This document shows positions 1,635 through 54,431 of a DNA stretch of 64,000 bases, piece by piece (the stretch's first letter is position 1; each line of letters opens with the position of its first letter). The position numbers and the translations under genes are program-made. The notes below the pieces were generated by a model. The model did not search any database, was not told the origin of the DNA, and saw nothing but the letters and a program-made list of their open reading frames with translations. This DNA comes from an uncultured Anaerolineales bacterium. GTDB taxonomy: Bacteria > Chloroflexota > Anaerolineae > Anaerolineales > UBA11858. Location: positions 1,255 through 65,254 of the forward strand of contig CAYWIC010000003.1 in the NCBI GenBank assembly GCA_964458115.1, written 5' to 3'.

Positions 1635-3626
1635 TTATGACAAATGCTTCTGAGGGATCTTATAGGCCAGGACATAGGCCAAACCGCCAGGGTTGAGATC
1701 CCTCCAAACAGCGTGAACGACCTTCTGCATCAATTGCTGGTGCGCATCGCTGAGCAGTTCCTCGGACACTGTAGCTTTCGCTTCGCTGAAGCGCTTTTCA
1801 ACCTCAGCTGCAAAGAAATCGAAGGCTTCTTGCGTCATTTCACCCAGGGCAGATTGATCATTCTCAGCAACAGCATAACCGGCGACTGCGGAGCGTGCAT
1901 CCGTCAACAGCGTACCGCGATATTCTTCATCATCGATCGCTTTGCTGATGATCTCAACAACAGATCGCTCAGACGTGTCCATATCCGCGAAATCCGGGGC
2001 GGGCTGTAAGTTTTCATGAATGCCGTCATCTTCCATGGCCTCATTGCCGCTTGGGAATTTCTCATCCCATGCCGGTTTAGGGATTGGCACAGGGAGCACA
2101 CCACCTACTTCATCTGCGCTGGCTCCCATATCTTCTTCCTGAGCCGGTTTGGGGATGGGGATCGGCAGTGTTCCCAACTCTTCACTCTCTGAGCTACCCG
2201 CGACACCCTGCTCTGGTGAAGGGATCGGCTCCATGTTGACACCCAGCTCATCGGCACCACCCCTGCCAGAGACCTCGACCTTGACATCATCAGGGGAAAG
2301 TCCCGTTTGGCCGCTCATATCTGGGGGCGGTGGCGGATCATGAGGGTCGCTAGCTACTTGTGCGGGAACAGGTCCGGGAAGATTGATGGGGGTGGCATCT
2401 TTACTGCCCTCGCCATCATCCTCACCGGAGGATTCGCTCAATTCGGAAGGATCCATCATGCCGGGGTCATCGCGGTCAACGGTGTCATCATCTCCAGCAA
2501 GTTCGAACTCCATGCCTTCCGGCACTTCAGCGACACTTGCGGGGCCGGGATCCCCAGGTTTCTCAGCCATTTCCATCGTTTGGTGAGGTTCTTCCAAGAT
2601 GCCGCTTCCCGGGGGCAAATCATCACGGTTGGGGCCGCTGATGAGCTGCATATCGTCGCCTTCTTCCTCGGCGACCGGGCCAGGCAAGTTGATGGGTGTA
2701 GCTTCATCTTTTCCATCGTCGTCGCCATCGGCAAGTTCGAACTCGATGCCCTCGGGGATCTCGGCCTGCTCAACGATGCCGCGATCTTCCAGCTTCTCTG
2801 CCATCTCGACCGACTGGTGCGGTTCTTCTAAGATGCCGGTACCATCAGGCAAATCATCGCGGTTGGGGCCGCTGATCAACTGCATATCGTCGTCTTCTTC
2901 CTCGGCGACAGGGCCGGGCAGATTGATGGGCGTGGCTTCATCTTTTCCATCGTCGTCGCCATCGGCAAGTTCGAACTCGATGCCCTCGGGGATCTCGGCC
3001 TGCTCAACGATGCCGCGATCTTCCAGCTTCTCTGCCATCTCGACCGACTGGTGCGGTTCTTCTAAGATGCCGGTACCATCAGGCAAATCATCGCGGTTGG
3101 GGCCGCTGATCAACTGCATATCGTCGTCTTCTTCCTCGGCGACAGGGCCGGGCAGATTGATGGGCGTGGCTTCATCTTTTCCATCGTCGTCGCCATCGGC
3201 AAGTTCGAACTCGATGCCCTCGGGGATCTCGGCCTGCTCAACGATGCCGCGATCTTCCAGCTTCTCTGCCATCTCGACCGTTTGGTGCGGTTCTTCTAAT
3301 ATGCCGCTGCCCGGGGGCAGATCCTGGGGATCAGGTCCGCTTTCTGGAACGTCTTCTTCACCAGTCTCGGGGGTGGGGATAGGAACAGGCGTACCGCTGG
3401 TCTGTTCAGCCGTTTCAACAGCTTCACTTAAAGCACTTTCGACTGCTTCGGCCTGTTCGAATGTTTGAGTCTCTTCAACACGGGCACCGGGATCGCTGGC
3501 TGCATCTTGCAGTGCTTGCTCCTCGGCTGCATCCTGGACTTCGCCGGTTTCGGTTATCTCGATTGCCTCGGCGGTATCCGCGCTTTCTGGGGTTTCTTCG
3601 GGTTGGGTAATTTCTAGCTCAGTCAT
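1635..3626 (-). CDS. Polyacidic repeat protein, paralogue 1 (663 aa) with C-terminal helical module
   Basis: ATG 3626 preceded by AAGGAG (aaaaaggagtgaccgATG). N-terminus MTELEITQPEE...ETQTFEQAEAVESALSEAVE is shared with the paralogues. Contains 78-aa tandem repeats (ILEEPHQ.VEMAEKLEDRGIVEQAEIPEGIEFELADGDDDGKDEATPINLPGPVAEEE). The non-acidic C-terminal ~125 aa read VVEIISKAIDDEEYRGTLLTDARSAVAGYAVAENDQSALGEMTQEAFDFFAAEVEKRF. Confidence 0.85.
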   Translation of the reverse strand: MTELEITQPEETPESADTAEAIEITETGEVQDAAEEQALQDAASDPGARVEETQTFEQAEAVESALSEAVETAEQTSGTPVPIPTPETGEEDVPESGPDPQDLPPGSGILEEPHQTVEMAEKLEDRGIVEQAEIPEGIEFELADGDDDGKDEATPINLPGPVAEEEDDDMQLISGPNRDDLPDGTGILEEPHQSVEMAEKLEDRGIVEQAEIPEGIEFELADGDDDGKDEATPINLPGPVAEEEDDDMQLISGPNRDDLPDGTGILEEPHQSVEMAEKLEDRGIVEQAEIPEGIEFELADGDDDGKDEATPINLPGPVAEEEGDDMQLISGPNRDDLPPGSGILEEPHQTMEMAEKPGDPGPASVAEVPEGMEFELAGDDDTVDRDDPGMMDPSELSESSGEDDGEGSKDATPINLPGPVPAQVASDPHDPPPPPDMSGQTGLSPDDVKVEVSGRGGADELGVNMEPIPSPEQGVAGSSESEELGTLPIPIPKPAQEEDMGASADEVGGVLPVPIPKPAWDEKFPSGNEAMEDDGIHENLQPAPDFADMDTSERSVVEIISKAIDDEEYRGTLLTDARSAVAGYAVAENDQSALGEMTQEAFDFFAAEVEKRFSEAKATVSEELLSDAHQQLMQKVVHAVWRDLNPGGLAYVLAYKIPQKHLS
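2587..3288. repeat. Three head-to-tail 234-bp (78-codon) tandem repeats within paralogue 1
   Basis: Units start at 2587, 2821 and 3055. Units 2 and 3 are identical by eye except the last few nt (cgaccgactggtgc vs cgaccgtttggtgc). Degenerate partial copies extend to about 2350 and 3340. Confidence 0.9.
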
Positions 3627-3737
3627 CGGTCACTCCTTTTTGACTAACATTAGCTTTCTCACTTATAGTCGCCGATACCGATAAAGAAGTAACAATTCTT
3701 GAAAATTGATATGCGCGGGACCACGCCCTATACAGAT

Positions 3738-4424
3738 CTATTTTTCAGACGTTTTGATGTTTTGGTAATGCTGAATAAGATCCTGATTCATGGCCTGGAA
3801 TTTGCGAATCTGCTCTTCGGGGAATCGATAACGGGATTTTGCTGTGGCCAGAGCAACCAGGCAATAGGACAGGTTTCCAAGATGGTCGGCGCTGATATGC
3901 CATTTGCCTGTCTGGAAAATGTTGAGCAGGTGATTCAGCGTGAAGCGCCAGACAACCTGGACGGGCTGACGCTGTTGGGGAGGGCGGGCGTTATCCACTT
4001 CGAGGAGATTTTGAAGCTCATCGAAGTTCGGCTCGCTGATCAGGGAAAAATACCCGTAGCGACAGGGGGCTTCGCAAATAAGGCAGCCGCGCTTGCGATG
4101 CAGACGGTTGACTTCTTTGGCGCGGCCTGGGAGTTTTGCCAGTTGGCGCATTTGTTCCTGAAAAGCGCGGCATTCATCTGGAGACGAATCAGCTCTCAGG
4201 GCTGCACGTGCCAGCCCAATTACAAGTTCGCTCTCCGGGTCGCGGCTGGCCTGGTGAAACGCGACGATCAGCCGCGATGCAGCCTCCACCGCCAGGGGCC
4301 AGGCTTCCCCAAAATCCCCTTTCACAGAAGGCAGTTCAGCCACCCGTTTGGGCGGGATTAAAGAGAGCAGGTTGAGGTAGATGATGGTCTGTTTAACTTG
4401 TGCGGCGGAGATTTTGTTACTCAT
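3738..4424 (-). CDS. Hypothetical helical protein (228 aa) with Cys cluster CLICEAPC
   Basis: ORF track 3738-4430 starts at GTG. ATG 4424 sits 5 nt after GGAG (tGGAGtgacaATG) and 12 nt after the stop of the upstream ATPase gene. No family recognised. An antisense ORF 3699-4361 exists, but it lacks operon context. Confidence 0.6.
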   Translation of the reverse strand: MSNKISAAQVKQTIIYLNLLSLIPPKRVAELPSVKGDFGEAWPLAVEAASRLIVAFHQASRDPESELVIGLARAALRADSSPDECRAFQEQMRQLAKLPGRAKEVNRLHRKRGCLICEAPCRYGYFSLISEPNFDELQNLLEVDNARPPQQRQPVQVVWRFTLNHLLNIFQTGKWHISADHLGNLSYCLVALATAKSRYRFPEEQIRKFQAMNQDLIQHYQNIKTSEK

Positions 4425-4436
4425 TGTCACTCCAGA

Positions 4437-7229
4437 CTACTGCAATTTCTGCATCGGTGTATAAGCCACTTTGACCCAGGAAGCCATATCATCCTGAATT
4501 CCGCAAACGATGGCCTGTCCAACTTTGAGACGGGCGATGACCTTGGCTTGATCCTCGGTCAGGGCTAGGGCACCTGCCATGGCCTGACGGTCGTCGGCAG
4601 CCACCAAGCGGTGGATGATCTTGAGATTGGTATTCTTGATGGCGTCAGGCACCAGCTTGGCGGGCACCTGGTCGATGATGGCCATACCCTGGCCATAGGC
4701 GCGGATCTCGGCCAGGATGTCGGCGAACATCTCGCCCATTTTGGCCTGAGGATTGGCTGAGTCGGAGCGCTGAGGGGCGGAGCGCAATACGCGGTGGGCC
4801 TCCTCGATGATCGCCAGATGGCGCAGCTCACTGGATTCGGGGGAGCCAAGACTCTCATGTTGGGCCTGGCGGTATTCATACATGAAGTTCAACAACAGTG
4901 CCATGGTGAAGCATTTATCAGCGTCATCGCCGAGATACTGCAAATTGACCACCACCGGGCGGTCGAAGAGATCGGCCCAGGGCGTAGAGAAAGGCTGGTC
5001 GTAGAGCTGGCCTTTCCAGCCGCGCAGCAAGCTGCCGATGCGCGTGCGCAAAGCGGCAGTGATATTGGCCGTAATGCGCTCTTCGTAACCCTTGCCGCGA
5101 ACCAATCCAGAAATGCGGTTGTGGAGCTGTTCCAGGGTGGGTCGGCCGATGCCATCGGGGGGCAATTTTTCTTCCAGCCAGCCCTGGCTGTCATAGAGAT
5201 CGACTAGGGCTTCCTCGAGAATCACGGGCAGGATTTCGTACATGGGGAAGCTGGCATTGAAGATCGATTTCAACCGGTCCAGGTGAGGCATCACCTGGGT
5301 GGTAGCGCCGGGGATCTGGACGATATCGAAGGGATTGAGTTGCAACTGTCCCAGAGGCTGGCCACCCCATTCACTGCGTCCTGGCATATAGACAGCGATC
5401 TCACGGTCAAAGGTTTTCGCCTTGTTGTAGGCCAGCGCCAACTGCACGTACTCGTCCTTGGCTGGCTCGATGACCAGGAAGTTCTTGCCGCTTTCCATCA
5501 ATTCGCTGATGATGCGACGGCAGGTGTTGGATTTGCCGCTGCCGGTGATACCGGTAATAAAGATATGTCGCGTCAGGGAATCGAGATCGACATCGTAGCC
5601 CAATCCTTCGATCTCTTCACCGCCCTCCAAAATATTGCCCAGGCTGAGAAGATTGGCTGGATCTTCCGGCACCGGAGGGTTGAGGCTGAAGAAGGCCGTG
5701 GGCTGCATGGGCATGCCTGGCATTTCACGGAGGGGCAGGTTTGCCAGTAACGAAAGTTCTTCAGTGTTCATAGGGGTGGTCAACCCCTCGAAGGCCCCCC
5801 CAATAGGATGTTGAATAGAAGTGCCTTCTTCAGGAGCAAATAACTTCAGCGGTGGCTGATAGAAGGTATCCAAAGCCACCTGGGCTTGACCATCCCATAC
5901 CGGGGAAAGGTCGTGGACGCGCATGGGCTCGAATGATGTCTTTTCGCCAGAGACCAGGGCTTTGAGCTGCGCCTGGCCTTGAGCAGCGGTCTCGCCCTGG
6001 TCGCTGATCAGGTAGACGCCGACATTCCAGCAGCCCTGAGATTTGGCAGCTTCGAAACGCTCCACGGTTTGAGTGAGCAGTTTCTCGCAGGCCTCAGCAT
6101 GACGATTGAGGTACTCACGTCCAAAGGAGAGTGACTCGCTGGAGGTTGCTCCCTCAGAGCTGGACGTCCCTGAGGAACGCCCAGTAGTCTGCGACTCGCT
6201 TTGTGAAGCTCCCCTAACAGCGGAACTGCTGGTGGAAGGGAGCAGTTGGCCGAACATGCCCAACATGCCGGATAGCAAGAAGGGTCCGCCAGTAGCAACC
6301 AACAAGGCCGATACCGCCCCGAAACCAACGCCTTTGAGTCCCTTGGTCAGGCCACGGGATTTGGCCATTTCTGTACCCAAGACACCCTTGCTGGCACCTT
6401 TGGTCTGACTTTCCGACCTGCCTGTGGTTTGCCCTGAGGATACAGATTCGCTTTCTGTTCGAGAAAGGCTCTCCGAGGTGCCGCTGCTGTGGCTGCGGTT
6501 GAGGGTCGCTTTGGTGAAGGCGTGCACCTGGCCGGAAAGGGTGTGACAAGACGAAATGATCTCCCCGACTTCGCTCTCGGGCATCGGCTCGGCAACGACC
6601 ATATAGAGATAGGGCTTGCCGCGCAGCCCGCGCATAAAGCGGTCTAGGCTCTGAGGGTGGGAGGCCGGTCTCTCGGCTTTCTTGATCGAAGGGATGCCGG
6701 TAAAGGCGCGCGCGTGGCGGTAGGTGCTCAGGGGGACATGCACGCGCTGGGCGATCTGATGGTAATCATCAACCAGCTTGACGCGCGTCCCAGGCCAATT
6801 GGAGCACAGGAACTGCCCTAACTGATCAGCGAACAGGCGCGGCTGGGTGCCGTGCTCCCGTGCGACCACCCCGATATAGATGCGGTTGCGCATCCCATCG
6901 CTGGAGATCATGAAGACCAGGGCAAAGCGCGGGTCGTGACAGGCTGCCAGCGAGGTCTGGATGGCAGTGAAGTACTCGCTCATATCCTCGGTGACCGGCT
7001 TGCCGACCTGCTCTAATTCCAAAATTGCCAGATCAGGCTGCTGTGAGATTTCTTCATCTCCCGAAATGCGCACATAATCATTCTCGAAAATTGGGCCATC
7101 TAAATAATCACGACCCAGCGTGAAGAGCAAGGACTTGGAGAGGGCGTCGCCAGCCTCCATGAGCATTTCAGGTGTCAAGTCTTCCGGGATGGCAGAATCG
7201 GTTTGGAGTATGAGGGATTCATCAGTCAT
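4437..7229 (-). CDS. 930-aa P-loop NTPase: C-terminal HerA/FtsK-superfamily (DUF87/COG0433-like) ATPase with ~470-aa N-terminal extension, Ser/Thr-rich tracts and a hydrophobic hairpin
   Basis: Walker A HIFITGITGSGKSNT (DNA 5552-5529) and Walker B LRHLAIIEEAHRVL. Pre-ATPase motif TEELSLLANLPLREMPG is typical of HerA-like ATPases. aa 245-368 read SHSSGTSESLSRTESESVSSGQTTGRSESQTKG...VGFGAVSALLVATGGPFLLSGMLGMFGQLL...STSSSAVRGASQSESQTTGRSSGTSSSEGATSSES. Confidence 0.85.
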   Translation of the reverse strand: MTDESLILQTDSAIPEDLTPEMLMEAGDALSKSLLFTLGRDYLDGPIFENDYVRISGDEEISQQPDLAILELEQVGKPVTEDMSEYFTAIQTSLAACHDPRFALVFMISSDGMRNRIYIGVVAREHGTQPRLFADQLGQFLCSNWPGTRVKLVDDYHQIAQRVHVPLSTYRHARAFTGIPSIKKAERPASHPQSLDRFMRGLRGKPYLYMVVAEPMPESEVGEIISSCHTLSGQVHAFTKATLNRSHSSGTSESLSRTESESVSSGQTTGRSESQTKGASKGVLGTEMAKSRGLTKGLKGVGFGAVSALLVATGGPFLLSGMLGMFGQLLPSTSSSAVRGASQSESQTTGRSSGTSSSEGATSSESLSFGREYLNRHAEACEKLLTQTVERFEAAKSQGCWNVGVYLISDQGETAAQGQAQLKALVSGEKTSFEPMRVHDLSPVWDGQAQVALDTFYQPPLKLFAPEEGTSIQHPIGGAFEGLTTPMNTEELSLLANLPLREMPGMPMQPTAFFSLNPPVPEDPANLLSLGNILEGGEEIEGLGYDVDLDSLTRHIFITGITGSGKSNTCRRIISELMESGKNFLVIEPAKDEYVQLALAYNKAKTFDREIAVYMPGRSEWGGQPLGQLQLNPFDIVQIPGATTQVMPHLDRLKSIFNASFPMYEILPVILEEALVDLYDSQGWLEEKLPPDGIGRPTLEQLHNRISGLVRGKGYEERITANITAALRTRIGSLLRGWKGQLYDQPFSTPWADLFDRPVVVNLQYLGDDADKCFTMALLLNFMYEYRQAQHESLGSPESSELRHLAIIEEAHRVLRSAPQRSDSANPQAKMGEMFADILAEIRAYGQGMAIIDQVPAKLVPDAIKNTNLKIIHRLVAADDRQAMAGALALTEDQAKVIARLKVGQAIVCGIQDDMASWVKVAYTPMQKLQ

Positions 7230-7327: not shown

Positions 7328-8917
7328 TCAACGAATACTCAAAGTAAACATTCGATCCCCGAAACGAATTTCGTCGCCTACTTGCAAATATTGCGGCAAT
7401 TGGGGTTGGATCCGCTCTCCATTCACAAACGTACCGTTGGTGCTGCCCAAATCGACGATTTCAGGAGCCTCGGCCGTTTGGCGCAGTTCAGCGTGGTTGC
7501 GGGAAACCTTGTCGCTCTCCAGCCAGACCTGGCATTCGCGAGCGCGGCCCACTTTGGTTACACTGAAGTTCAATGGATAAACTTTGCCATCGGGTGAGAT
7601 TAACTGCAATCCAGTCTTGGAGACAGGATCATTTGATCGGTCAGAATCAACCTTAGGAGGTGGTTCGATAACTAGGCTGGCGCCGGGTTCCAGGGTTCCC
7701 ATGGAGCTACCATATGCCAGCCCAACCCCGCGCACTACGATCTCGTCGGGGTTATCTGCCAATACAACTTTACCCTCCCCAAAGCGTTGCCTTAGATGCC
7801 GCACGATACTGAACAATTGCACTCCACCCCCCACCAAAGCCACCTGACCGATATCTTGATCGGCCAGCCCGATAGCATCGATGGCCTTGACAATCATAGA
7901 CTGGAAGGCCTGATCTAAATGTCCGGCGATCCGATTGAATGCCTCTTGATCGAGCTTGACCAGGCGTCGAAAGACCTGGCCATCCCGTAGCACCAGGGTG
8001 ATCATACGTTGGGCGTTGATTTCACCCTCACCATCGCTACTGTGCAGCAACCGGCGACTAAGTGATTCCTTCAGCCGCTGGGCGTAGATGCGCATAGTCG
8101 CCATTGCAGAAGGATCATCAGCCAACGCAGATGCGGGCACATTGAGCTCATCGGCCAGGTGTTTGGCCATCTCGGCATCATAAAGACCGCCACCAAATGG
8201 CTCACCATAGCGTCCTAGGTAGAGCAGCTCGCCGGTTCGGGGATCAAGTTGACCGGCGACGATGTCGGTGGTGCTGCCGCCCACATCGACGATCAGCGTC
8301 ACGCCACCACGGCTGCTATTCAAGAGGCCCTGGCGCTTTAGGCTCAAAATGGCACCCTCGGGTTCAGGGACAAATGCAATTTGGGAGTGAACGTTTTCCG
8401 GAAAGCAGGTCAAGACCAGGGCTTTGAAATCTTCCAGGATCGCCCCTTTTTGATCATGATTCCAATGCACCGGGTAGGCAAAGGCAAAGCGAACACTTTC
8501 ATCGAAAGCGCTGGCCCGCCACTTTTCCGCCCGAATCTGCTCAACCACAACCTCGAGCAACATGCGAGTGAACTCCAAGGCCTGGGCATGGGTGTAGCGC
8601 TTCTGGTGCGGCAGCGGGTTGGCTTCTAAATGCGCGCCAATGCAGGGTTTGAAATATTCTCGCACGCGCTCGCGGGCATTCTCATCCTCCAGTTGACCCT
8701 GTGAGACCTCCCCAAAGCATTCAACAGCCGACCCTTCAGGCGTCAGGGTCAGAATTGCGGGTAATTTTCTCTCGGAGAAACTGGTCAATGGCGAGGGTTG
8801 AGGATCCCCCAAAATGTGGATCACATTGCCATCCAGGCGATATCCCACCCGGTACAATCGCCAGTTCGTCGCCCCGCAATCCAAGGCGAAGAGTGTCACT
8901 TGTTTGCCATTGGCCAT
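7328..8917 (-). CDS. Hsp70/actin-fold (ASKHA) ATPase fused to a C-terminal FHA domain (529 aa)
   Basis: Phosphate-1 FALDCGATNWR, phosphate-2 LIVDVGGSTTDIV and adenosine motif VALVGGGVQL are present. C-terminus VGRARECQVWLESDKVSRNHAEL...IVDLGSTNGTFVNGERI is an FHA signature (G-R...S-x-x-H...N-G). Confidence 0.85.
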   Translation of the reverse strand: MANGKQVTLFALDCGATNWRLYRVGYRLDGNVIHILGDPQPSPLTSFSERKLPAILTLTPEGSAVECFGEVSQGQLEDENARERVREYFKPCIGAHLEANPLPHQKRYTHAQALEFTRMLLEVVVEQIRAEKWRASAFDESVRFAFAYPVHWNHDQKGAILEDFKALVLTCFPENVHSQIAFVPEPEGAILSLKRQGLLNSSRGGVTLIVDVGGSTTDIVAGQLDPRTGELLYLGRYGEPFGGGLYDAEMAKHLADELNVPASALADDPSAMATMRIYAQRLKESLSRRLLHSSDGEGEINAQRMITLVLRDGQVFRRLVKLDQEAFNRIAGHLDQAFQSMIVKAIDAIGLADQDIGQVALVGGGVQLFSIVRHLRQRFGEGKVVLADNPDEIVVRGVGLAYGSSMGTLEPGASLVIEPPPKVDSDRSNDPVSKTGLQLISPDGKVYPLNFSVTKVGRARECQVWLESDKVSRNHAELRQTAEAPEIVDLGSTNGTFVNGERIQPQLPQYLQVGDEIRFGDRMFTLSIR

Positions 8918-44042: not shown

Positions 44043-45203
44043 TTAGGGTTCACAAGCGCTATCAGGAATGCCTATCGAGCCGCCATTCGAAAGGTCAATC
44101 TTGAGGTTTTTCGTCAACTTGCCACCACACGTATTCAGATTATAGGTGTATGTCGTTCGATCGACGGTGAATGTCTCTGCCTTTTCAGCACCTACAGTCA
44201 AGTAATAGAACTGCCCGCCTGCTCCATGCATATACACATATGCGGGTTTTTCGCTATTGTTATCAACAAGGAATCTGGCCAATTGGGGACGAGCAGATAG
44301 TACCTGGGCTGAAGGGGTTGTGGTTTTCGTCTCACAGGTTGCCGGAACGACCAGGCTGCCACCGTTGGAAAGGTTGAGAGCGTTATTTTTCGACATCTTC
44401 CCGTCACATGAGCCCAAATTATACGTGTAGGTCGTTCTTTCAACTGTGAATGTTTTTGAAGTATTCGCAGCAACTGCCAGGTAATAGTACTGACCGCCCG
44501 CGCCATGCAAATAGACATAGGCAGCATATGCACTGCGGTTGTCAACGGTGAATCTGCCCAATTGTGGTCGAGCGGATAGTACTTGGGCAGAAGGAGATGT
44601 GGTCGATGTCTCACAAGTTGCTGGGACGACCAAACTGCCACTGTGGGAAAGGTCGATCGCTTTGTTCTTAGAAAGTTTTCCACCACACGAATTCAAATCA
44701 TACTTATAGGTCGTTCGATCCACTGTGAATGTTTTCTCAGTCTTCGCTGCAACCGTCAGGTAATAGAACTGCCCACCTGCACCACGTAGATAAACATATG
44801 CGGTATATGCGCTGCGGTTATCAACCGTGAATCTACCCAATTGCGGTCGAGCAGATAGAACTTGTGCTGAAGGAGTTGTGGTTTTAGTCTCACAAGTGGC
44901 TGGAACAACTATGCTACCACCGTCTTTCAGATCGATCGATCCACTGGCAGATGTTCCACCACAAGTCACTAGCTTGTAAGTATATTTCACTCGCTCTACA
45001 GTGAATGTGCTCGAGGTCCCCGCCGCGACAGTCAAGTAATAGTATTCTCCCCCGGCGCCATTCATGTAAATATATGCAGGATAAGCACTATTATTATCAA
45101 TCGTAAATCGGGCTAATGTGGGTCGGGCGAATGCTGTCGAAGTCGATATTAGCAACAACGCCATAACAATGAATAATACTGCGGACAGTTTCTTGATCTT
45201 CAT
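44043..45203 (-). CDS. Secreted protein made of four ~88-aa tandem repeats, two Cys per repeat
   Basis: Start at ATG 45203/45206 after GAGGAGG. Signal peptide MKIKKLSAVLFIVMALLLISTSTAFA. Repeat unit ARPQLGRFTVDNRSAY.AYVYL.GAGGQ.YYLTVAA.T.KTFTV.RTTY.Y.L.SCGGK...VVPATCET.TT.PSAQVLS, four times. Confidence 0.8.
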   Translation of the reverse strand: MKIKKLSAVLFIVMALLLISTSTAFARPTLARFTIDNNSAYPAYIYMNGAGGEYYYLTVAAGTSSTFTVERVKYTYKLVTCGGTSASGSIDLKDGGSIVVPATCETKTTTPSAQVLSARPQLGRFTVDNRSAYTAYVYLRGAGGQFYYLTVAAKTEKTFTVDRTTYKYDLNSCGGKLSKNKAIDLSHSGSLVVPATCETSTTSPSAQVLSARPQLGRFTVDNRSAYAAYVYLHGAGGQYYYLAVAANTSKTFTVERTTYTYNLGSCDGKMSKNNALNLSNGGSLVVPATCETKTTTPSAQVLSARPQLARFLVDNNSEKPAYVYMHGAGGQFYYLTVGAEKAETFTVDRTTYTYNLNTCGGKLTKNLKIDLSNGGSIGIPDSACEP

Positions 45204-45409
45204 CATGATCCTCCTCATGAAACGTGTGAATAAAAACCCTATAAACAGAATATTCAAAAATAATTTTTAAACAATAGTACTTTCGGTTTATTTTCGGATT
45301 AAAGAGGTCATAAATGTGGGCAGCTTTGTTAAATTTCGCGTTAACGTCATGAAACAATGGGAAACCAGCATATAATTGCGAATACATAAACTTATTCCGG
45401 GAGGATCTT

Positions 45410-46978: not shown

Positions 46979-48388
46979 ATGAAAAAGTTGATTACACCCC
47001 TCATCATCATTATCGCTATCGCCGGTGGGGTCTATGGTTTCACTCGCTTCCGCCAACAGAAAAAGACAATAGATACACAGGCCAGTTATCGTACCCAAAT
47101 TGTTGAACGTGGCACTTTGGAGGCTATTGTGGGTGCCACGGGCAACGTCCGCTCGAATCAAAGTGCCACTCTGGTATGGAAAGCTTCGGGGACAGTTGAG
47201 GACATGTATGTAAATGCTGGCGATTCTGTAACCAAAGATGAGATTTTAGCCCAATTGCTAAAAGAGTCCCTCAGCGAAACATTGATCAACGCTCAGGCAG
47301 AGTTGGTTAGCGCTAAGAATGCTCTCGATGATCTCTACAAGAGATTTAATGATCTGGCGGTTTCTCAGGCCGAGAAAGCTGTTGCTGATGCAAAAAAAGC
47401 CTTACAGACAGCTGAACGCAAGCTAGCTACCCTTCAATCTCAGGCCCCCTCAGCTGACATCGACGCCGCAAAAGCGCAACTCGTACTGGCTCAGATCGAA
47501 CTGGAAAAAGCCCAAAAGGATTTCAAACCCTACGAGAATAAACCTGAAAATGATATGGAACGGGCAGTGTTTCTACAAAGGCTCTCTGAAGCGCAAAAAG
47601 CCTACGATGCCGCCGCTCGAAGGGTGAACAGTTTACAAGGAACTGCCAACGCCAATGACCTGGCTGTCGCGGAGGCAGATTTAGCTTTGGCAGTTGAACA
47701 GCTTGCCGATGCCGAAAAAGAGCTGGACAAAATACTCAAGGGTCCAAAGCCTGAAGACATCGAAGCTGCTCAAGCGCGCATCACAGCTGCCCAAATTACG
47801 CTCAACCGCGATCACATCAAAGCCCCCTTCGATGCCACAGTAACGTTGGTCGAAAGTAAACCTGGCGATATCGTTGCTGCTGAAACAACCGCCTTCCGCC
47901 TGGATGATCTTTCCCGTCTGCTGGTCGATGTACAGGTTTCAGAGGTGGATATCAACCGTGTCGCTATTGGTCAACCGGCTACGTTGAACTTCGACTCCAT
48001 CTCGAACAAGACCTTTCAGGGTGAAATTACGAAAGTCGCCCTGGTAGGAAATACTTCTTTGGGTGTGATCAACTTCAAAGTCACCATAGAAATCAATGAT
48101 GTCGATGAAAATATCAAACCCGGAATGCGAACTTCCACCAATATTACCGTAGAAGTCCTGGAAGATGTCTTATTGATTCCCAACGGTGCCGTCAGGCTCA
48201 AAGATAATCAACGCGTGGTCTATATCATAAAAGATAATTTCTTGACCCCGGTGAACATCACTTTAGGATCATCATCGGAAACCATGAGTGCTGTCATCGA
48301 AGGGGATTTGGAAGCTGGCGACGAATTGGTACTGAATCCGCCATCCCAGGATAGCGCCATGGATCTTTTGCTTCAAGAAGAAGAATAG
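46979..48388 (+). CDS. HlyD/MacA-type periplasmic adaptor (membrane fusion protein)
   Basis: N-terminal TM segment, long Ala/Leu/Lys coiled-coil hairpin (aa ~100-290), and beta-barrel C-terminus. Confidence 0.85.
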
Positions 48389-48401
48389 AGGCTTATGCAC
48401 C

Positions 48402-49094
48402 ATGTCTGAAAATAACTTTGTCATTACCACCAAAGATTTGACCAAAACCTACCAGATGGGCGAGGTCGAGGTGCATGCGCTGCGCGGGGTATCAATTAAC
48501 ATAGTAAACGGAGAACTAATCTCGATTATGGGTCCTTCTGGTTCGGGAAAATCGACCCTGATGAATTTGATCGGCTGTTTGGATAGTCCCACCTCCGGTG
48601 AATATTACCTGGACAGCGGTGAGGTTTCAAAACTCAATGAAAACCAATTGGCCAACGTACGCAATCGCCGCATTGGCTTCGTTTTTCAGAGTTTCAACTT
48701 GCTGCCCCGGGCTTCGGCACTGGCAAATGTGGAACTTCCCATGCGTTACGCCAGCGCCAGTCGCAAACAGCGTAAAGACAAAGCCATAGCGGCCCTGGAA
48801 GCTGTGGGCTTGGCTGACCGCATGAGCCACCGCCCCAACGAAATGTCGGGTGGGCAGCAACAGCGAGTGGCCATTGCCCGCGCGCTGGTCAATGATCCGG
48901 CCATCATTCTGGCGGATGAACCCACCGGCAACCTCGACACCAAATCTGGCGATGAGATCATGAACTTGCTGCTCTCCCTCAACAAGGATCAGGGAAAAAC
49001 CATCATCGTCGTCACCCACGACCCCGAAATTGGCGAGTTGACCGAGCGCATCATCCGTCTACGCGATGGAAAGCTCGAAAAGGAACGAATATGA
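48402..49094 (+). CDS. ABC transporter ATP-binding protein (MacB/LolD-type)
   Basis: [35 protein letters not shown]. Confidence 0.9.
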
Positions 49095-50338
49095 ACGTCT
49101 GGCAATCCCTAGTAGAAGCACTCGAAAGTATTTCAGCGAATAAGTTGCGTTCGTCACTGACCATCCTGGGAATTGTGATCGGTGTGGCCGCCGTTGTCGC
49201 CATGATCGGCATTGGCCGCGGTGCAGAAAGCTCCATCACGTCAGAAATCCAGGGCATTGGTGCCAATTCACTCTATCTTTTCTCAGGCAGCGAAGCTGCC
49301 TATGAAGATGATGCTCAAATCATAAACATCAAACCGCTTACCATGGCTGATGCTCGAGCTTTGCTCGACCCTCTCAATGCCCCCTCGGTGAAATACATTT
49401 CACCCGAGATCAGCACCGACGCCGATATAACTTTTGGCAAAAGATACAAAAACACAACCGTAACTGGAATTGCTCCGGCAATCGCCATGATCAGCAACCT
49501 TCAAGTAAGCGAGGGCGAATTCATCACCGAAGCCCACATGCTGGGGCGTTCATCTGTTGTCGTCATTGGACCCAAGATCGGCATTAAACTATTTGGGCGC
49601 GCCGAAGCTTTGGTCGGTGAAATGGTGCGTATCAATGGGCAACCCTTCCGCATAATCGGCGTATTGAAATCGCGCGGCGGCTCAGGAGGTACAAGCGATG
49701 CCGATAATGCTGCCTATGTACCCATCACCACCGCTCAAAACCGTCTTATCTATCTCAGCGAGGTCGATCAGGTAGATGTGATCAATATTGGAGCAACCAG
49801 TGCAGACACAGTTAAATCTGCCAAAGAAGAGGTTGCTCAAATCATTCGCATGCGCCACCGCTCCCCAATTGGCAGAGATGATTTCACAATTTTGTCTCAG
49901 CAGCAATTTGTGGAAGCTTTCAAAAGCGTCACCAAAGTGCTCACTGTTTTCCTCGGAGGCATTGCCGGGATTTCCCTGCTCGTCGGCGGCATCGGGATTA
50001 TGAACATCATGCTGGTTTCGGTCACCGAACGCACCCGTGAGATTGGCTTGCGCAAAGCCCTGGGGGCGCGCAAGAGTGACATCCTGGTGCAGTTCCTGGC
50101 CGAATCGTCTTTGCTTAGCTTGTTGGGTGGCATCATCGGTGTTCTGCTGGCGATAGGCATTTCATCAATTGTTGCTCAAGTTGCTACTGCACAAAATGCC
50201 AATTTCACCCCAAAAATTACCAGTGATGCTGTTTTGTTGGCGACCGCTTTTTCAACCGTGATTGGTTTATTTTTTGGACTTTATCCCGCTAACCGGGCCG
50301 CCAGCCTTGTCCCGGTGGAAGCTCTGCGGTCTGAATAA
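49091..50338 (+). CDS. ABC transporter permease, MacB/FtsX-type
   Basis: ATGA overlap with the ATPase gene. N-terminal TM, large periplasmic domain, and C-terminal FtsX helices with [14 protein letters not shown]. Confidence 0.9.
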
Positions 50339-50345
50339 AATAATT

Positions 50346-52214
50346 ATGAAAAGAAGAAAATTCCCATCCAGGTTGATCCTTCTCATATGCCTTGGTTTTA
50401 GCTTCCTGGGCCAGGAAACCCCCGCCTTTGGAGCCAGCGATCCGGATTCAAACATTCCTGAGTTTTTTGTATCCCAAAACGTAATCCTTTCTGCCGAGGA
50501 TAGCAGTTTGGAGGATAACTTCGGCTGGTCGCTGGCCGTCTCCGGTGACACCCTGGTTGTGGGTGCGCGCAATGAAGACCCAGAGATCGACGGCACAGTT
50601 GTTAGCAACGCTGGTTCCGCCTATGTCTTTGTCAAAGAAGATTCGATCTGGGCCCAGCAAGCCAAACTGGTTGCCTCCGACGCGGCCAGTTATGATGGCT
50701 TCGGCACATCCGTCGATATCCATGGTGATGTGATTGTAGTGGGAGCCAACGGCGCCAATCTCACCAGGGATAAGAAATCCTACAACAATGCCGGCGCCGC
50801 CTACGTATTCGAACGTAACGGCACTGCCTGGGAACAGCGCATCAAACTGACTGCCGGTGATCCTGCAAAGGATGATTTCTTTGGAGCCTCCGTAGCGATC
50901 CGAAAAGGGAGAATCGCCGTAGGTGCAGACGGTGTGGATCTCCAGGGCACCCCCAATGCCGGGGCAGTATATGTATATCTGCGCAGCGGCAAATTGTGGT
51001 ACCAAAACAGCAAACTCATCGCGGATGATCCGCAACCTGATGCGCTTTTAGGCTCCTCCGTGGACATTGATGGAAACTACCTGATCACCGGCGCCCCAGA
51101 ACCGGGGTCATATCTTGTCCGTCCAGGGGCCGCATATATTTTCCAGTACAACGGTGGCAGCAATTGGGTTCAGGCAATCAAGCTGACCTCCGACACAACT
51201 ACCGGTGGCGATTTCTTCGGACAATCCGTTGCTATTCACGGTGGAACAGCAGTGGTCGGAGCGGTGTACCAGGATATCACGCCCAAGGATAGAAACAATC
51301 CAGCGGGGTTGACCATCAAAGACGCTGGTGCTGCCTTTGTATTCTCACGAAGCGGAAGCAAATGGCAGCAGAAAGCCAAGCTGGTTGCCCGGGATGCCAG
51401 CCCGTTTGATAACTTTGGCGAATCAGTTGCGATCGACGACAATCTAATCGTGGTCGGTGCGGTCGGGGATGATCCCATCGGAACATATGCTGCCGGATCA
51501 TCTTATGTTTTTCGGCATGAAAAAAGCGAATGGCAGCAACTGAGCAAACTGGTGACGTTTGCACCAGAAGTCGATGATGCCATGGGGAAATCCGTGGCTG
51601 TAAGTGGAGACACCATCATCGTCGGTGCGACTGGCCGGGATGCCAATCAGCACCGCAATGCCGGGGCGGCGATGACCTTCTCTCTAAAGCAAGGAAGCTT
51701 GCCGTCAACGGGTTTTCCACGGGGCCAAAGTGCTGTGAAAATCCCTGAGAAACCTTCTTTGGGCGTGGTTCCCGAAACCCCTGGGGGCGGGCTCGCCCTC
51801 GAGCTTCCCAGCAGCCCACACTCAATTCCAATTGTTGATGTTCCGTTTGGTTCAGATGGCTGGGACGTCAGTTGGCTTCACAATCAGGCTGGCTATCTTC
51901 AGGGCAGCGCCTATCCCACCTGGAAGGGAAATACTGCCATTGCGGCCCATGTTCATAACTTCGATGGCCGTCCGGGACCATTTGCCAACCTGCACCAATT
52001 AAAATGGGGGGACCGCATTATCATCCACGCCTGGGGAATGCAGCATATTTACGAGATCCGAGAAGTCAAAGAAGTCTCACCCGATGACCTGTCGGTGCTG
52101 GCCCACTCAGAACAGGATGTCTTGACCCTGATCACGTGTAAAGACTTCAATGAAGACAAGTCTGCTTACGATCTCCGTTTAGCTGTCCGTGCTGTCCTGA
52201 TCTCTGTAGAATAA
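50346..52214 (+). CDS. Secreted seven-bladed FG-GAP-like beta-propeller - LPSTG motif - sortase-domain fusion protein (622 aa)
   Basis: Start at ATG 50346 (MKRRKFPSRLILLICLGFSFLGQETPAFGA). Seven units of D.FG.SVA..G....VGA...D....AG.AYVF. LPSTGFPRG at 51699-51713. Sortase motifs TAIAAHVH (His), LTLITC (Cys codon 52137-52139) and LAVRAV (Arg). Confidence 0.85.
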   Translation: MKRRKFPSRLILLICLGFSFLGQETPAFGASDPDSNIPEFFVSQNVILSAEDSSLEDNFGWSLAVSGDTLVVGARNEDPEIDGTVVSNAGSAYVFVKEDSIWAQQAKLVASDAASYDGFGTSVDIHGDVIVVGANGANLTRDKKSYNNAGAAYVFERNGTAWEQRIKLTAGDPAKDDFFGASVAIRKGRIAVGADGVDLQGTPNAGAVYVYLRSGKLWYQNSKLIADDPQPDALLGSSVDIDGNYLITGAPEPGSYLVRPGAAYIFQYNGGSNWVQAIKLTSDTTTGGDFFGQSVAIHGGTAVVGAVYQDITPKDRNNPAGLTIKDAGAAFVFSRSGSKWQQKAKLVARDASPFDNFGESVAIDDNLIVVGAVGDDPIGTYAAGSSYVFRHEKSEWQQLSKLVTFAPEVDDAMGKSVAVSGDTIIVGATGRDANQHRNAGAAMTFSLKQGSLPSTGFPRGQSAVKIPEKPSLGVVPETPGGGLALELPSSPHSIPIVDVPFGSDGWDVSWLHNQAGYLQGSAYPTWKGNTAIAAHVHNFDGRPGPFANLHQLKWGDRIIIHAWGMQHIYEIREVKEVSPDDLSVLAHSEQDVLTLITCKDFNEDKSAYDLRLAVRAVLISVE

Positions 52215-52393
52215 CTTCATTCACCATCAATGTACTGTCATGATCACATCAATTGTTCTAGCATTTCTCGTAAAATTTTATTTTCAGTATCAGGAAAAAA
52301 TATATCGGCTCTTCTCAAAAACTTTAGCCCCCCAAGAAGAGCGCAATTAGCCGGTCATTATTTTGAGCTACGATTTACAGTACAATAGAAACC

Positions 52394-52546
52394 ATGCACA
52401 ATTTCATCCAGACACAGAAACGCAACCTCAGTCAAGAAAAGGTAAACTCGGGCAGACAATTCGCCGTGGATTTTGCCCGCGGGCTAGCCGTACTTTTCAT
52501 GATCTGGGTGCACGTGCTTGAAATGTTCGCCAATACCGATGCCTAA
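52394..52546 (+). pseudogene. Possible 50-codon remnant of an acyltransferase-3/DUF1624-type membrane protein gene
   Basis: MHNFIQTQKRNLSQEKVNSGRQFAVDFARGLAVLFMIWVHVLEMFANTDA-stop. R..A.D..RG.A...M..H resembles the family N-terminus. Too short for the ORF track. Confidence 0.3.
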
Positions 52547-52625
52547 GACACATATTTTCAGTGATGTTATCGAATTCCTGGGTGGCCCACCAGCTGCCCC
52601 CGGCTTGATGCTGCTATCGTCCGAG

Positions 52626-52645
52626 TTATCCGTGTTCATCCGTGT
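52626..52645 (+). promoter_or_regulatory. Two tandem 10-bp direct repeats just upstream of the OmpR-family regulator gene (candidate autoregulatory box)
   Basis: TTATCCGTGT-TCATCCGTGT, followed by cCTAATAATc (-10-like) and ATG 52663 with no SD. Confidence 0.45.
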
Positions 52646-52662
52646 CCTAATAATCTAAGCTC

Positions 52663-53379
52663 ATGCCACAAACCATCCTCGTTGTAGATGACGACCCCCA
52701 AATTGCGCGTCTGGTGCGTGAATACCTGGAGCAAGCAGGCTACCACGTTCTTATGGCCTACGATGGCAATACCGCCATTCACAATGTTTATCAAAATAAA
52801 CCCGACCTCGTGATCTTAGACCTTGGCCTGCCAGACCGAGATGGATGGGATGTCACCCGCATTATCCGCAATGATGAAAGGGTGGCAACCATTCCCATTA
52901 TCATGCTAACGGCACGCGTAGATGATAGTGACAAAATCGTTGGACTGGAGCTTGGGGCGGATGACTACATCCCCAAGCCGTTCAATGCTCGTGAAGTTGT
53001 GGCCCGGGTGCGGGCGCTGCTGCGTCGCCAGGAATGGGACCAAAAACCATCAATACGTGCCATCCAACACGGGAACTTGAGACTCGACCCCGCCACGCAT
53101 GAATTAAGGGTCAGTGGCCGTCTTGTGGATCTAACACCTGCTGAATTCAAATTGCTGCAAACACTGATGGAAAACCCGCGCATAACCTTTCACCGCGAGG
53201 AATTGCTAGAAAAAGCCCTCGGCTATGGTTACGAGGGACTGGGCCGCACCCTGGATACGCATATAAAGAATCTCAGACAGAAAGTCGAACCAGACCCCAA
53301 GAACCCAACGTATATTCAAACTGTTTATCGTGTGGGTTATCGTTTTATTATCCCTGAAATGGAAGCAGGCACAGCATGA
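52663..53379 (+). CDS. OmpR/PhoB-family response regulator
   Basis: REC domain ILVVDDD...DLVILDLGLPDRDG...MLTA. wHTH domain LTPAEFKLLQTLM...IQTVYRVGYRF. Confidence 0.9.
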   Translation: MPQTILVVDDDPQIARLVREYLEQAGYHVLMAYDGNTAIHNVYQNKPDLVILDLGLPDRDGWDVTRIIRNDERVATIPIIMLTARVDDSDKIVGLELGADDYIPKPFNAREVVARVRALLRRQEWDQKPSIRAIQHGNLRLDPATHELRVSGRLVDLTPAEFKLLQTLMENPRITFHREELLEKALGYGYEGLGRTLDTHIKNLRQKVEPDPKNPTYIQTVYRVGYRFIIPEMEAGTA

Positions 53380-54431
53380 ATCGTTTGTGGGTTCGTATGG
53401 GTTTTATCGTTGGAATTGTGCTGGTGATGGTCATTACCGTACCTACAATGTTCTTCTATTTCTCGGCTGAACGTCAGGAATTGGAAGAGTATTATTTTGC
53501 AGACACGGACATAACTTTGGAACAAGCTATTTTTGAAGAATTTGTTTCAAATATTATTTTCGGTGCGTTCATTGGCCTGATCGCTGGTTTGTTGGTAAGT
53601 CGAAGTCTGAGGCAATCATTTATTAAATTGCTCGCCGCTACCAGATCCATCGACTACGAAAATCTCAGTCATCGCGTCGAAGTAGAGGGGGTAAAAGAGT
53701 TCGAAGAATTGGCCGCTTCCTTCAACTTGATGATCGATAAACTTGAACAAGCACATCAGGAGCGGCGCAATTTGCTGGCCGATGTCTCCCACGAATTACT
53801 CACGCCATTGACCGTGTTGGAAGGCAATCTACGCGCCCTGCTGGATGGTGTCTACGAAACTACGGATGAGGAAATCAGCTACCTCTACGACCAGACTCAC
53901 CACCTGATCCGGCTGGTCAAAGATTTACGCCAACTGGCTCAGGCCGAAGCGCACCAACTTCCCATTGAGAAACAATCCGTGGATATCCGCGAGTTCACCC
54001 AGGATATTGTCACACTGTTCGAGCCTCTGTGCGCCGAGAAGAGTATCTCGCTAGAAGTCACATATTCCGAAGAACTGTTTAAGGCATACATAGACCCCGG
54101 CCGTATTCGACAGGTAATTAGCAATCTCCTGACCAACGCGATCCGCCATACGCCCATGGGAGGTAAGATCAGTTTGATATGGGGCGTTGAAGAGCAGGAT
54201 ATTACATTAGCCGTACAGGATTCTGGCGAGGGAATGACCCCAGAAGAAGCCGCCTCGATCTTCACGCGTTTTTACCGCAGCGATAATGCTCAACGGCGTG
54301 ACGCCGGCGGCACTGGGTTAGGATTGGCGATTGTGAAGGGAATTGTGGAATCCCATGGCGGGTATGTTATGGCACACAGCGAGGGGGCCCATCGGGGGAG
54401 TTGCTTTACGATCTCAATACCAAATGCGTAA
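53376..54431 (+). CDS. Sensor histidine kinase (TM-HAMP-HisKA-HATPase)
   Basis: ATGA overlap with the RR gene. H-box LADVSHELLTPLT, N-box LLTNAIRHT, G-boxes DSGEGM and GTGLGLAIV. Confidence 0.9.
   Translation: MNRLWVRMGFIVGIVLVMVITVPTMFFYFSAERQELEEYYFADTDITLEQAIFEEFVSNIIFGAFIGLIAGLLVSRSLRQSFIKLLAATRSIDYENLSHRVEVEGVKEFEELAASFNLMIDKLEQAHQERRNLLADVSHELLTPLTVLEGNLRALLDGVYETTDEEISYLYDQTHHLIRLVKDLRQLAQAEAHQLPIEKQSVDIREFTQDIVTLFEPLCAEKSISLEVTYSEELFKAYIDPGRIRQVISNLLTNAIRHTPMGGKISLIWGVEEQDITLAVQDSGEGMTPEEAASIFTRFYRSDNAQRRDAGGTGLGLAIVKGIVESHGGYVMAHSEGAHRGSCFTISIPNA

Follow-up and report, generated by a model that had tools for sequence, protein, structure and literature searches.

A natural LPxTG–sortase fusion in a large family of Anaerolineae surface proteins and its possible self-processing

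Sortases cut the LPxTG motif between its threonine and glycine, and pass the upstream part to an amine nucleophile. To our knowledge, all characterised sortases are membrane-anchored, act over multiple turnovers, and work on separately encoded substrates. Here we analyse a gene within a 64,000-nucleotide stretch of DNA from an uncultured Anaerolineales bacterium (contig CAYWIC010000003.1; hereafter called “the window”), in which an enzyme of this kind and its putative recognition site lie in one polypeptide: a secreted beta-propeller is followed by an LPSTG motif, a linker, and a sortase domain. This C-terminal unit—hereafter called the “cassette”—recurs in many other proteins, and the window gene is one member of a family of Anaerolineae surface proteins that is very large and, it appears, has not been described before. 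The reaction itself presumably follows ordinary sortase chemistry. What appears to be new is the architecture, in which the enzyme is fused behind its own recognition site, without an anchor and with one enzyme per substrate.

The cassette shares with the canonical sortase/LPXTG system the enzyme fold, the His-Cys-Arg triad, the TLxTC motif, and the LPxTG motif with a free x. In both, the passengers are secreted, resemble adhesins or pilins, and start with a signal peptide. It differs in that the enzyme and the substrate form a single polypeptide with one enzyme for each substrate, the enzyme is unanchored, the substrate lacks the transmembrane (TM) segment and basic tail, and the enzyme scores far below the class A–F and GN cut-offs. 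Moreover, canonical signals have no counterpart of the conserved P′ side of the cassette (GFAPG, then LPxQP...Y). The class C sortases, which are the closest solved relatives, share an N-terminal segment located about 30–40 residues before strand 1, whereas the cassette carries a genuine LPxTG instead of the DPx mimic, and lacks the N-terminal helices and the N- and C-terminal TM segments. The passenger of the window protein also contains no pilin motif of the YPKN kind.

Engineered tags usually have the order tag–sortase–LPXTG–target, employ class A enzymes of the S. aureus type, and serve the purpose of release. In two such designs (BISOP, PMC2901362; self-cleave display, PMC10726597), the sortase and LPXTG are reported to share one chain, so that the enzyme cleaves its own fusion. 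These constructs are man-made, while the natural cassette follows the order passenger–LPxTG–sortase and its proposed purpose is anchoring rather than release. In the full-text literature that is searchable without a subscription, we found only engineered fusions, and no description of a natural LPxTG–sortase fusion or of Anaerolineae sortases. The C-terminal domain of Hedgehog/Hint proteins forms a thioester at the junction, passes the N-terminal domain to a nucleophile (cholesterol in Hedgehog), and is discarded after a single turnover. This likeness is a functional analogy only, as Hedgehog/Hint domains use an intein-like N–S acyl shift, have an unrelated fold, and are not homologous to the cassette. 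Finally, the C-terminal domain (CTD) of the type IX secretion system (T9SS), with PorU, and the PEP-CTERM/exosortase system are also modular C-terminal tags on very diverse passengers, and the T9SS CTD sits on homologous FG-GAP propellers exactly at the position of the cassette. Processing in these systems is left to a separate membrane protein, and the tag itself is non-catalytic.

The window protein combines all of these parts in one uninterrupted open reading frame (ORF; Table 1). Its N-terminus, with KRRK, a 12-residue hydrophobic core, and an AFG-AS site, has the appearance of a typical cleavable Sec signal, and the FG-GAP–sortase orthologues have comparable N-termini with AxA-type sites. 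The FG-GAP_2 family of Pfam (PF14312) matches seven repeats with an E-value of 1.7e-91, and the propeller model (AlphaFold/AF2, 26 orthologues) consists of 28 strands in seven four-stranded blades, with a predicted local distance difference test score (pLDDT) of ~95. A sortase barrel is also present in this full-length model. The top Foldseek matches of this propeller are the integrin alpha headpieces (E ~1e-17). The LPSTG motif occupies residues 452–456. The maximum 19-residue hydropathy after residue 40 is only 1.12, and therefore no TM segment follows the motif or lies elsewhere in the interior or C-terminal part of the window protein. In place of the TM segment and positively charged tail, a proline-rich linker and the 133-aa enzyme domain come after the motif, and the NCBIfam scan of the window protein gave no sorting-signal match of the TIGR01167 type. 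A sequence-only reading of this DNA had already described a signal peptide, seven FG-GAP blades, LPSTG, and a sortase in one chain, with no TM anchor behind the motif, and the ORF, Pfam, AlphaFold, and hydropathy analyses agree with it on every one of these points.

The LPSTG of the window protein is not there by chance. It is the sole LPxTG among all six-frame ORFs of at least 100 aa in the window. At the amino-acid composition of the window protein, 0.0097 occurrences would be expected by chance, and shuffling gave the motif in 187 of 20,000 sequences; in the zone before the sortase domain, the expectation is ~0.001. The identical 622-aa protein occurs on four independent metagenome contigs from different samples with the same neighbours, and it is therefore not an assembly artefact. 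The ATG at 50346 directly precedes the signal peptide, and this start is called on all four contigs. With the alternative in-frame TTG at 50262 as the start, the longer gene (extension 50262–50345) would share 77 nt with the end of the MacB gene.

Next, we examined the sortase domain, which belongs to the sortase superfamily (MEROPS C60). Residues 486–618 match the Pfam Sortase family (PF04203) with an E-value of 2.6e-21 and 76.1 bits, as compared to a cut-off of 26.6, and the general sortase model TIGR01076 with 51.8 bits (cut-off 39.35). A model of the cassette alone folds into the eight-stranded sortase beta-barrel with pLDDT >90 over the domain, and Foldseek matches it to sortases C, D, E, and A at E ~1e-10 and probability 1.00. 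His535, Cys598, and Arg611 are 100% conserved across 228 cassettes, and therefore the domain is, as judged from this conservation, evidently maintained as an enzyme. W506, W510, L511, G516, and P524 are likewise invariant in this set. The sequence-only reading had placed the His in AAHVH and the Cys in LTLITC correctly. However, its choice of the Arg of LAVRAV (R615), which is kept in less than 85% of the 228 cassettes, was wrong: the catalytic Arg is the invariant R611 (YDLRLAV), located at Cys+13, the spacing that also separates C184 and R197 in SrtA.

Which class does this enzyme belong to? The window protein misses all of the NCBIfam class cut-offs, as the scores were 47.8 bits against 160 for class C, 43.9 against 140 for SrtD, 42.3 against 165 for class D, 39.1 against 160 for class E, 32 against 166 for class F, and 27.2 against 158 for class GN. 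Four other, canonical family members are likewise below the cut-off of every named sortase class, and no family-specific NCBIfam model matched the window protein or these four members. The closest solved structures, by both profile and fold, are the class C pilus sortases, followed by those of classes D and E. The DP[F/W/Y] lid of class C is absent, and the aligned segment reads TGFAPG in the family and TGFPRG in the window protein. In addition, there is no enzyme membrane anchor: the region from the motif to the C-terminus lacks a hydrophobic segment in the window protein and in 82 family ORFs.

The sequence-only reading had pointed to similar, uncharacterised proteins from Anaerolineae and suggested a search for the architecture, and such a search revealed a large family. 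The C-terminal 180 aa of the window protein, used as a query, retrieved 64 relatives, most of them gene fragments from Anaerolineales-type metagenomes, and nearly all that reach far enough upstream have LPxTG about 143–146 residues before the catalytic Cys. We defined the cassette family by [L/I/M]PxTGF located 140–146 residues before the catalytic Cys, at the extreme C-terminus of a protein with an N-terminal signal peptide. The window protein, with 146 residues from the motif to the Cys, 24 aa after the Cys, and a signal peptide, belongs to it. A pattern scan of species-representative genomes yielded at least 582 confirmed cassette matches, and a HMMER search over 1.84 billion cluster representatives (50% identity) yielded 1,600 proteins at E <= 1e-30. 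Taxonomic assignments of the loci were taken from the labels of the metagenome-assembled genomes (MAGs): among the best 80 loci, 68 bear Anaerolineae-class names, 11 carry a generic Chloroflexota/Chloroflexia label, and one is labelled Phycisphaerae. Nearly all of the genomes with cassettes are from Anaerolineae, and many of them have several copies. The public annotation of family members, including the 3,239-aa MBI4762444.1, is only “sortase”.

At least seven of the best 80 loci come from one MAG (CAZLNX01), and some cassette genes are arranged in tandem. The tandem and close pairs, together with this MAG, indicate large paralogous expansions of putative cassette genes within a genome. Examples of such pairs are 3–1229 with 1725–6014 in locus L031, and 7674–8537 with 11965–15510 in L081; the cassette genes of L025 and L026 lie on one contig, about 10 kb apart.

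The motif and its position are strongly conserved. [L/I/M]PxTGF is present in 79 of the 82 ORFs of the best loci, and the exceptions are two ORFs cut off at contig ends and one standalone domain (L033). In the motif columns of 80 loci, the first residue is L in 69, M in 6, and I in 5; P, T, and G are each found in 80/80 and F in 79/80. In the extension, A occurs in 64, P in 75, and G in 61 loci, while x is free (A, E, D, S, K, N, and others). Such an invariant core with a free x is the pattern expected for a sortase recognition site. Downstream of the motif, V-T-x-L-P-x-Q-P-(4)-Y is conserved in the 80 loci. The cluster representatives gave the same picture: the cassette is at the extreme C-terminus in all but one (P0110) of the best 150, in proteins of 248–5,482 aa. 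Among the best 149, 136 have [L/I/M/V]Px[T/S]GF at 140–145 residues from the Cys and 11 more have xPxTGF with another first residue, so that P-x-T-G-F is found in 147; P0186 also has it, as the 148th. In the 26 FG-GAP–sortase orthologues, where loss of the motif would have spoken against the sequence-only reading, L452, P453, T455, and G456 are invariant. The fixed motif-to-Cys distance and the conserved linker argue for a defined geometric relation between the putative recognition site and the enzyme. The window protein itself has a divergent linker, with FPRG rather than FAPG, 146 rather than 143 residues, and without the conserved Tyr, and it keeps IPEKP as the counterpart of the LPxQP of the family.

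Several sequences depart from the common arrangement. P0110 (1,048 aa), the sole cassette not at a C-terminus, has its motif at 691, its Cys at 835, and ~210 residues after the sortase domain; it may be the product of a fused gene call or represent another architecture. In L033, 8043–8438 encodes a standalone 131-aa sortase domain of the cassette family, which lacks the LPxTG, the passenger, and the signal peptide; an ABC-2 permease gene precedes it, and there is an in-frame stop just upstream. P0023 (L093/L094, 6001–6432) is an isolated 143-aa fragment that begins within the linker and stops before the catalytic Arg. It is flanked by unrelated opposite-strand genes, comes from a sampling project (SUTE22-1) shared with one of the contigs of the window protein, and looks like a decayed, C-terminally truncated remnant of a cassette gene. 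In P0002 (JGI 3300072015), whose sortase domain is the closest to that of the window protein (64% identity), the gene call is 143 aa long and follows, after a gap of 24 nt, a 595-aa gene without a Pfam match. Passenger and enzyme may be naturally split here, or the separation may reflect a frameshift; a genuine split would amount to a naturally occurring trans-acting form. Apart from the cassette family, standalone sortases of ~220 aa with an N-terminal TM segment (L095–L097; P0380 and relatives) are widespread in Anaerolineae and Aggregatilineales, with one sequence on at least 24 contigs, and no obvious LPxTG substrate was seen next to those of L095–L097.

What does the cassette carry? The passengers range from ~100 to more than 5,000 residues across the family, and those members that are complete begin with signal peptides that have AxA-type sites. 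Propellers include the FG-GAP, SBBP, lactonase-type, and DUF5122 kinds, and other passengers consist of beta-helix with Flg_new and Big_9, CARDB, Chlam_PMP, or DUF11 repeats with an RrgB-type isopeptide pilin domain. In P0067, for example, TIGR04226, the RrgB-type isopeptide-forming fimbrial domain, lies together with a DUF11 repeat in residues 106–314. Domains of either kind are typical of Gram-positive sortase-dependent pilins and adhesins. The passengers are mutually unrelated and look adhesin-like, and their diversity and multiple copies suggest the pattern of a substrate rather than that of an enzyme.

The FG-GAP propeller allows a direct comparison of C-termini. In other phyla, the C-terminus of homologous propeller proteins is formed by a T9SS C-terminal sorting domain, a dockerin, RTX repeats, or a TM segment with a KKRKSK tail, while at least 17 of the best 120 propeller homologues end in the LPxTG–sortase cassette. 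Because the same propeller carries a T9SS domain, dockerin, or RTX repeats in other phyla, the cassette fills the slot normally taken by a sorting or anchoring module. In P0250 (655 aa, “Chloroflexi bacterium”), a homologous FG-GAP propeller is joined to TIG domains; its C-terminus, ...GGGCGASAAVATSEAIASSFGLLGFLSVSGLYVGHRQKKRKSK, is a hydrophobic segment with a basic tail and without LPxTG, and suggests that the C-termini of other Chloroflexota carry another sorting signal. Conventional LPxTG–TM–basic C-termini were absent from ~1.02 Mb of loci plus the window, a biased sample rather than whole genomes, and hence a weak negative. Furthermore, all-against-all clustering of 407 neighbouring ORFs from the 80 loci detected no conserved partner gene for an acceptor, an anchor, or a wall enzyme. 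The recurrent neighbours are only other giant surface proteins, response regulators, and ABC ATPases, each at eight loci or fewer.

On balance, we consider it more probable than not that the cassette—a unit of ~170 aa composed of the LPxTG motif, the conserved linker, and an intact sortase—replaces both the sorting signal and the separate membrane-anchored sortase, and processes itself. How would this proceed? The protein would first be exported by the Sec pathway and lose its signal peptide. Cys598 of a cassette sortase would then attack the T455–G456 bond of LPSTG, in its own chain via the ~30-residue tether or in a neighbouring family member, and a thioacyl intermediate would hold the propeller. 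An amine nucleophile, most likely an acceptor cell-wall peptide or another envelope component, would resolve this intermediate. Finally, the propeller would be covalently attached, and the 167-aa sortase fragment G456–E622 would be released as the leaving group. Since the enzyme fragment would leave at each reaction, each enzyme copy would be used essentially once.

Self-processing, in cis or between molecules, appears to be the best-supported mechanism, within which we infer the cleavage, the choice of cis or trans, the acceptor, and attachment as opposed to release. We favour it because the motif is canonical and invariant with a free x, the triad is invariant, and the spacing is fixed with a conserved linker. 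We also favour it because the passengers are substrate-like, the cassette sits in the slot of a sorting module, and no separate substrates or partner genes were found. The class C sortases provide a structural precedent, as their lid occupies the LPXT-binding groove as a pseudo-substrate (PMC3493515). In our profile alignments, the DPW/DPF of the class C lid (2xwg, 24rr) falls on FAPG or within four residues of it: the “LDPW” of A. oris SrtC-1 falls on FAPG, the “NPG-LDPF” of Ebp SrtC is inserted directly after it, and the downstream conserved Tyr is aligned as well. Since the class C lid sits in the LPXT groove from the same sequence position, a segment at the position of the motif can presumably reach the active site in cis.

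Several points weigh against this mechanism. Cleavage and anchoring are deductions for every member of the family. AlphaFold does not dock the motif: residues 450–481 have a pLDDT of ~31 in the full-length model and are predicted to be disordered, and the motif region reaches 63–73 in the cassette-only model. These low values in both models do not speak for a pre-docked motif. The enzyme also lacks the membrane anchor that would place it by lipid II, the classical acceptor, and the standalone, N-terminally anchored sortases of Anaerolineae might process the motif. The lid residues align to FAPG and not to LPxT, which also fits an autoinhibitory role, and the lack of conventional substrates rests on the biased sample of ~1 Mb described above.

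In the first alternative, the cassette is a self-cleaving release module: LPST is cut from G, water resolves the thioester, and the C-terminal part acts as an autoprotease or pro-domain that frees the passengers as soluble or non-covalently bound proteins. This explanation fits the same architecture and conservation as self-processing with attachment, and it agrees with the lack of a membrane anchor that would place the enzyme near lipid II, with the lack of a conserved acceptor or partner gene around the 80 loci, and with the slow hydrolysis of the acyl intermediate by sortases when the nucleophile is absent. Nevertheless, sortases are transpeptidases and poor hydrolases, and a simple protease would be cheaper. 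Moreover, the passengers contain adhesin- and pilin-like modules whose counterparts in other monoderm bacteria are anchored covalently, and the cassette fills the anchoring or sorting slot of homologous propellers. We therefore regard release as unlikely.

Alternatively, LPxTGFAPG might be an uncleaved, autoinhibitory pseudo-substrate, homologous to the class C lid, in an enzyme that acts on other substrates and is targeted or localised by its N-terminal domain. The alignment of DPW/DPF to FAPG or just after it (profile against Protein Data Bank entries), the pseudo-substrate nature of the class C lid, and the closeness of the solved class C structures are what such a lid would lead one to expect. 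However, the motif matches the canonical cleavage site perfectly and leaves x free, unlike a degenerate mimic, and no candidate substrates with conventional signals appeared in the biased ~1-Mb sample. N-terminal parts that span ~100 to more than 5,000 aa, adopt unrelated adhesin-like folds, and have many paralogues within a genome would be atypical for enzymes, and this enzyme, too, would lack a membrane anchor. A lid of this kind thus seems quite unlikely.

The third alternative assigns the cleavage and anchoring of cassette proteins to a separate housekeeping sortase, and another task to the fused domain, for example cross-linking to other proteins, of the kind known from the two-enzyme pilus pathway, or holding the protein back until it is processed. 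Standalone enzymes of ~200–240 aa with an N-terminal TM segment, some of them named class F, are indeed common in Anaerolineae/Chloroflexota. They are 35–37% identical to the cassette enzyme, and no substrate is evident beside one of them. Their occurrence is established at the level of Anaerolineae/Chloroflexota and not for the same genomes as the cassettes. The invariant triad and the fixed spacing are most simply explained by a fused enzyme acting on the fused motif, and the conserved FAPG and linker would be unnecessary for recognition by an external sortase, which makes this explanation improbable. An artefact, whether two genes fused by mis-assembly or mis-calling or an LPxTG that arose fortuitously, was rejected on the grounds of the same 622-aa ORF on four independent contigs, the hundreds of homologous loci sharing the architecture, and the motif chance expectation of ~0.01.

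Returning to self-processing, we tentatively put forward a fuller version, to which we give somewhat less than an even chance. In this self-sorting scheme, the cassette would be a disposable, membrane-independent sortase that performs a single turnover within or between molecules, ligates its own passenger to the wall, sheath, or envelope, and is then shed. It may derive from a lid-bearing, class C-like ancestor in which the pseudo-substrate position became that of a real substrate. If self-sorting is true, then the cassette is a natural substrate–enzyme fusion that abolishes the division of labour basic to all described sortase systems. With ~1,600 clusters (50% identity) and proteins of up to ~5,500 aa, the family appears to break the rule of anchored, multi-turnover enzymes with separate substrates at scale. 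The Anaerolineae are filamentous, monoderm-like, and abundant in sediments, digesters, and oxygen-minimum zones. Self-processing, if it occurs, would represent a new mode of surface-protein attachment in this major, poorly understood lineage and explain how its members display giant adhesins. It would also provide an evolutionary link to the class C sortase lid, and would give protein engineering a tag of ~170 aa that is compact, genetically encoded, and able to ligate or cleave itself.

Table 1. Coordinates of the propeller–sortase gene and of its neighbours in the window
Feature	Position	Strand	Remarks
Complete gene (signal peptide, FG-GAP propeller, LPSTG, linker, sortase)	50346..52214	+	Uninterrupted ORF, 622 aa
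Predicted Sec signal peptide, aa 1-29 (MKRRKFPSRLILLICLGFSFLGQETPAFG, then A)	50346..50432	+	Read from sequence; putative cleavage site
Seven-bladed FG-GAP_2 beta-propeller passenger, aa 39-450	50460..51695	+	Pfam, AF2, Foldseek
LPSTG (51699-51713) and extension FPRG	51699..51725	+	Putative scissile bond T455-G456; family consensus LPxTGFAPG
Linker from motif to first sortase strand, without TM segment	51726..51800	+	Hydropathy, alignments, AF2
Sortase catalytic domain, aa 486-618	51801..52199	+	Pfam PF04203, TIGR01076, AF2, Foldseek
Catalytic codons	His535 51948-51950; Cys598 52137-52139; Arg611 52176-52178	+	Conservation in cassettes
HlyD/YknX-type adaptor	46979-48388	+	Upstream
ABC ATPase	48402-49094	+	Upstream
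MacB/FtsX permease	49091-50338	+	Upstream
OmpR-type response regulator	52663-53379	+	Downstream
HAMP histidine kinase	53376-54431	+	Downstream

The gene is flanked by an exporter and a two-component system (Table 1). As the sequence-only reading had noted, it starts 7 nt after a MacAB-type exporter operon: the permease gene stops at 50338 and the propeller–sortase ATG is at 50346. The pair of OmpR-type regulator and HAMP kinase also follows the 75%-identity orthologue, and the module 46979–54431 as a whole resembles the two-component-linked ABC exporter modules (detoxification/envelope stress) of monoderm bacteria. Within the FG-GAP subfamily, ABC exporters of three types lie directly upstream in three independent contexts, including the window; on the same strand as the propeller–sortase gene, L086 has TetR-ABC2-HlyD/YknX-ABC-ABC, and L089/L090 have ABC-ABC2. 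An upstream ABC exporter is absent at the orthologue loci L087/L088, L091, and L092. An exporter link as a feature of the whole family was rejected, as tblastn searches with the HlyD and MacB of the window matched 0 of the 80 family loci. The signal peptide argues for Sec export, and the exporter is therefore unlikely to be the secretion route of the propeller–sortase protein; co-regulation or a shared envelope function is possible.

Two further ORFs lie in this neighbourhood. Between the sortase gene and the response regulator, 52394–52546 (+) encodes 50 aa (MHNFIQTQKRNLSQEKVNSGRQFAVDFARGLAVLFMIWVHVLEMFANTDA) and is called as a gene on three of the four contigs. In the locus of the 75% orthologue (L085), a 362-aa Acyl_transf_3 gene is found instead. 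Since that gene holds the same position, the 50-aa ORF may be a remnant of an Acyl_transf_3 N-terminus. Upstream of the exporter module, 44043–45257 (-) encodes a 404-aa protein that matches DUF6759 (E 4.6e-17) and is otherwise unannotated.

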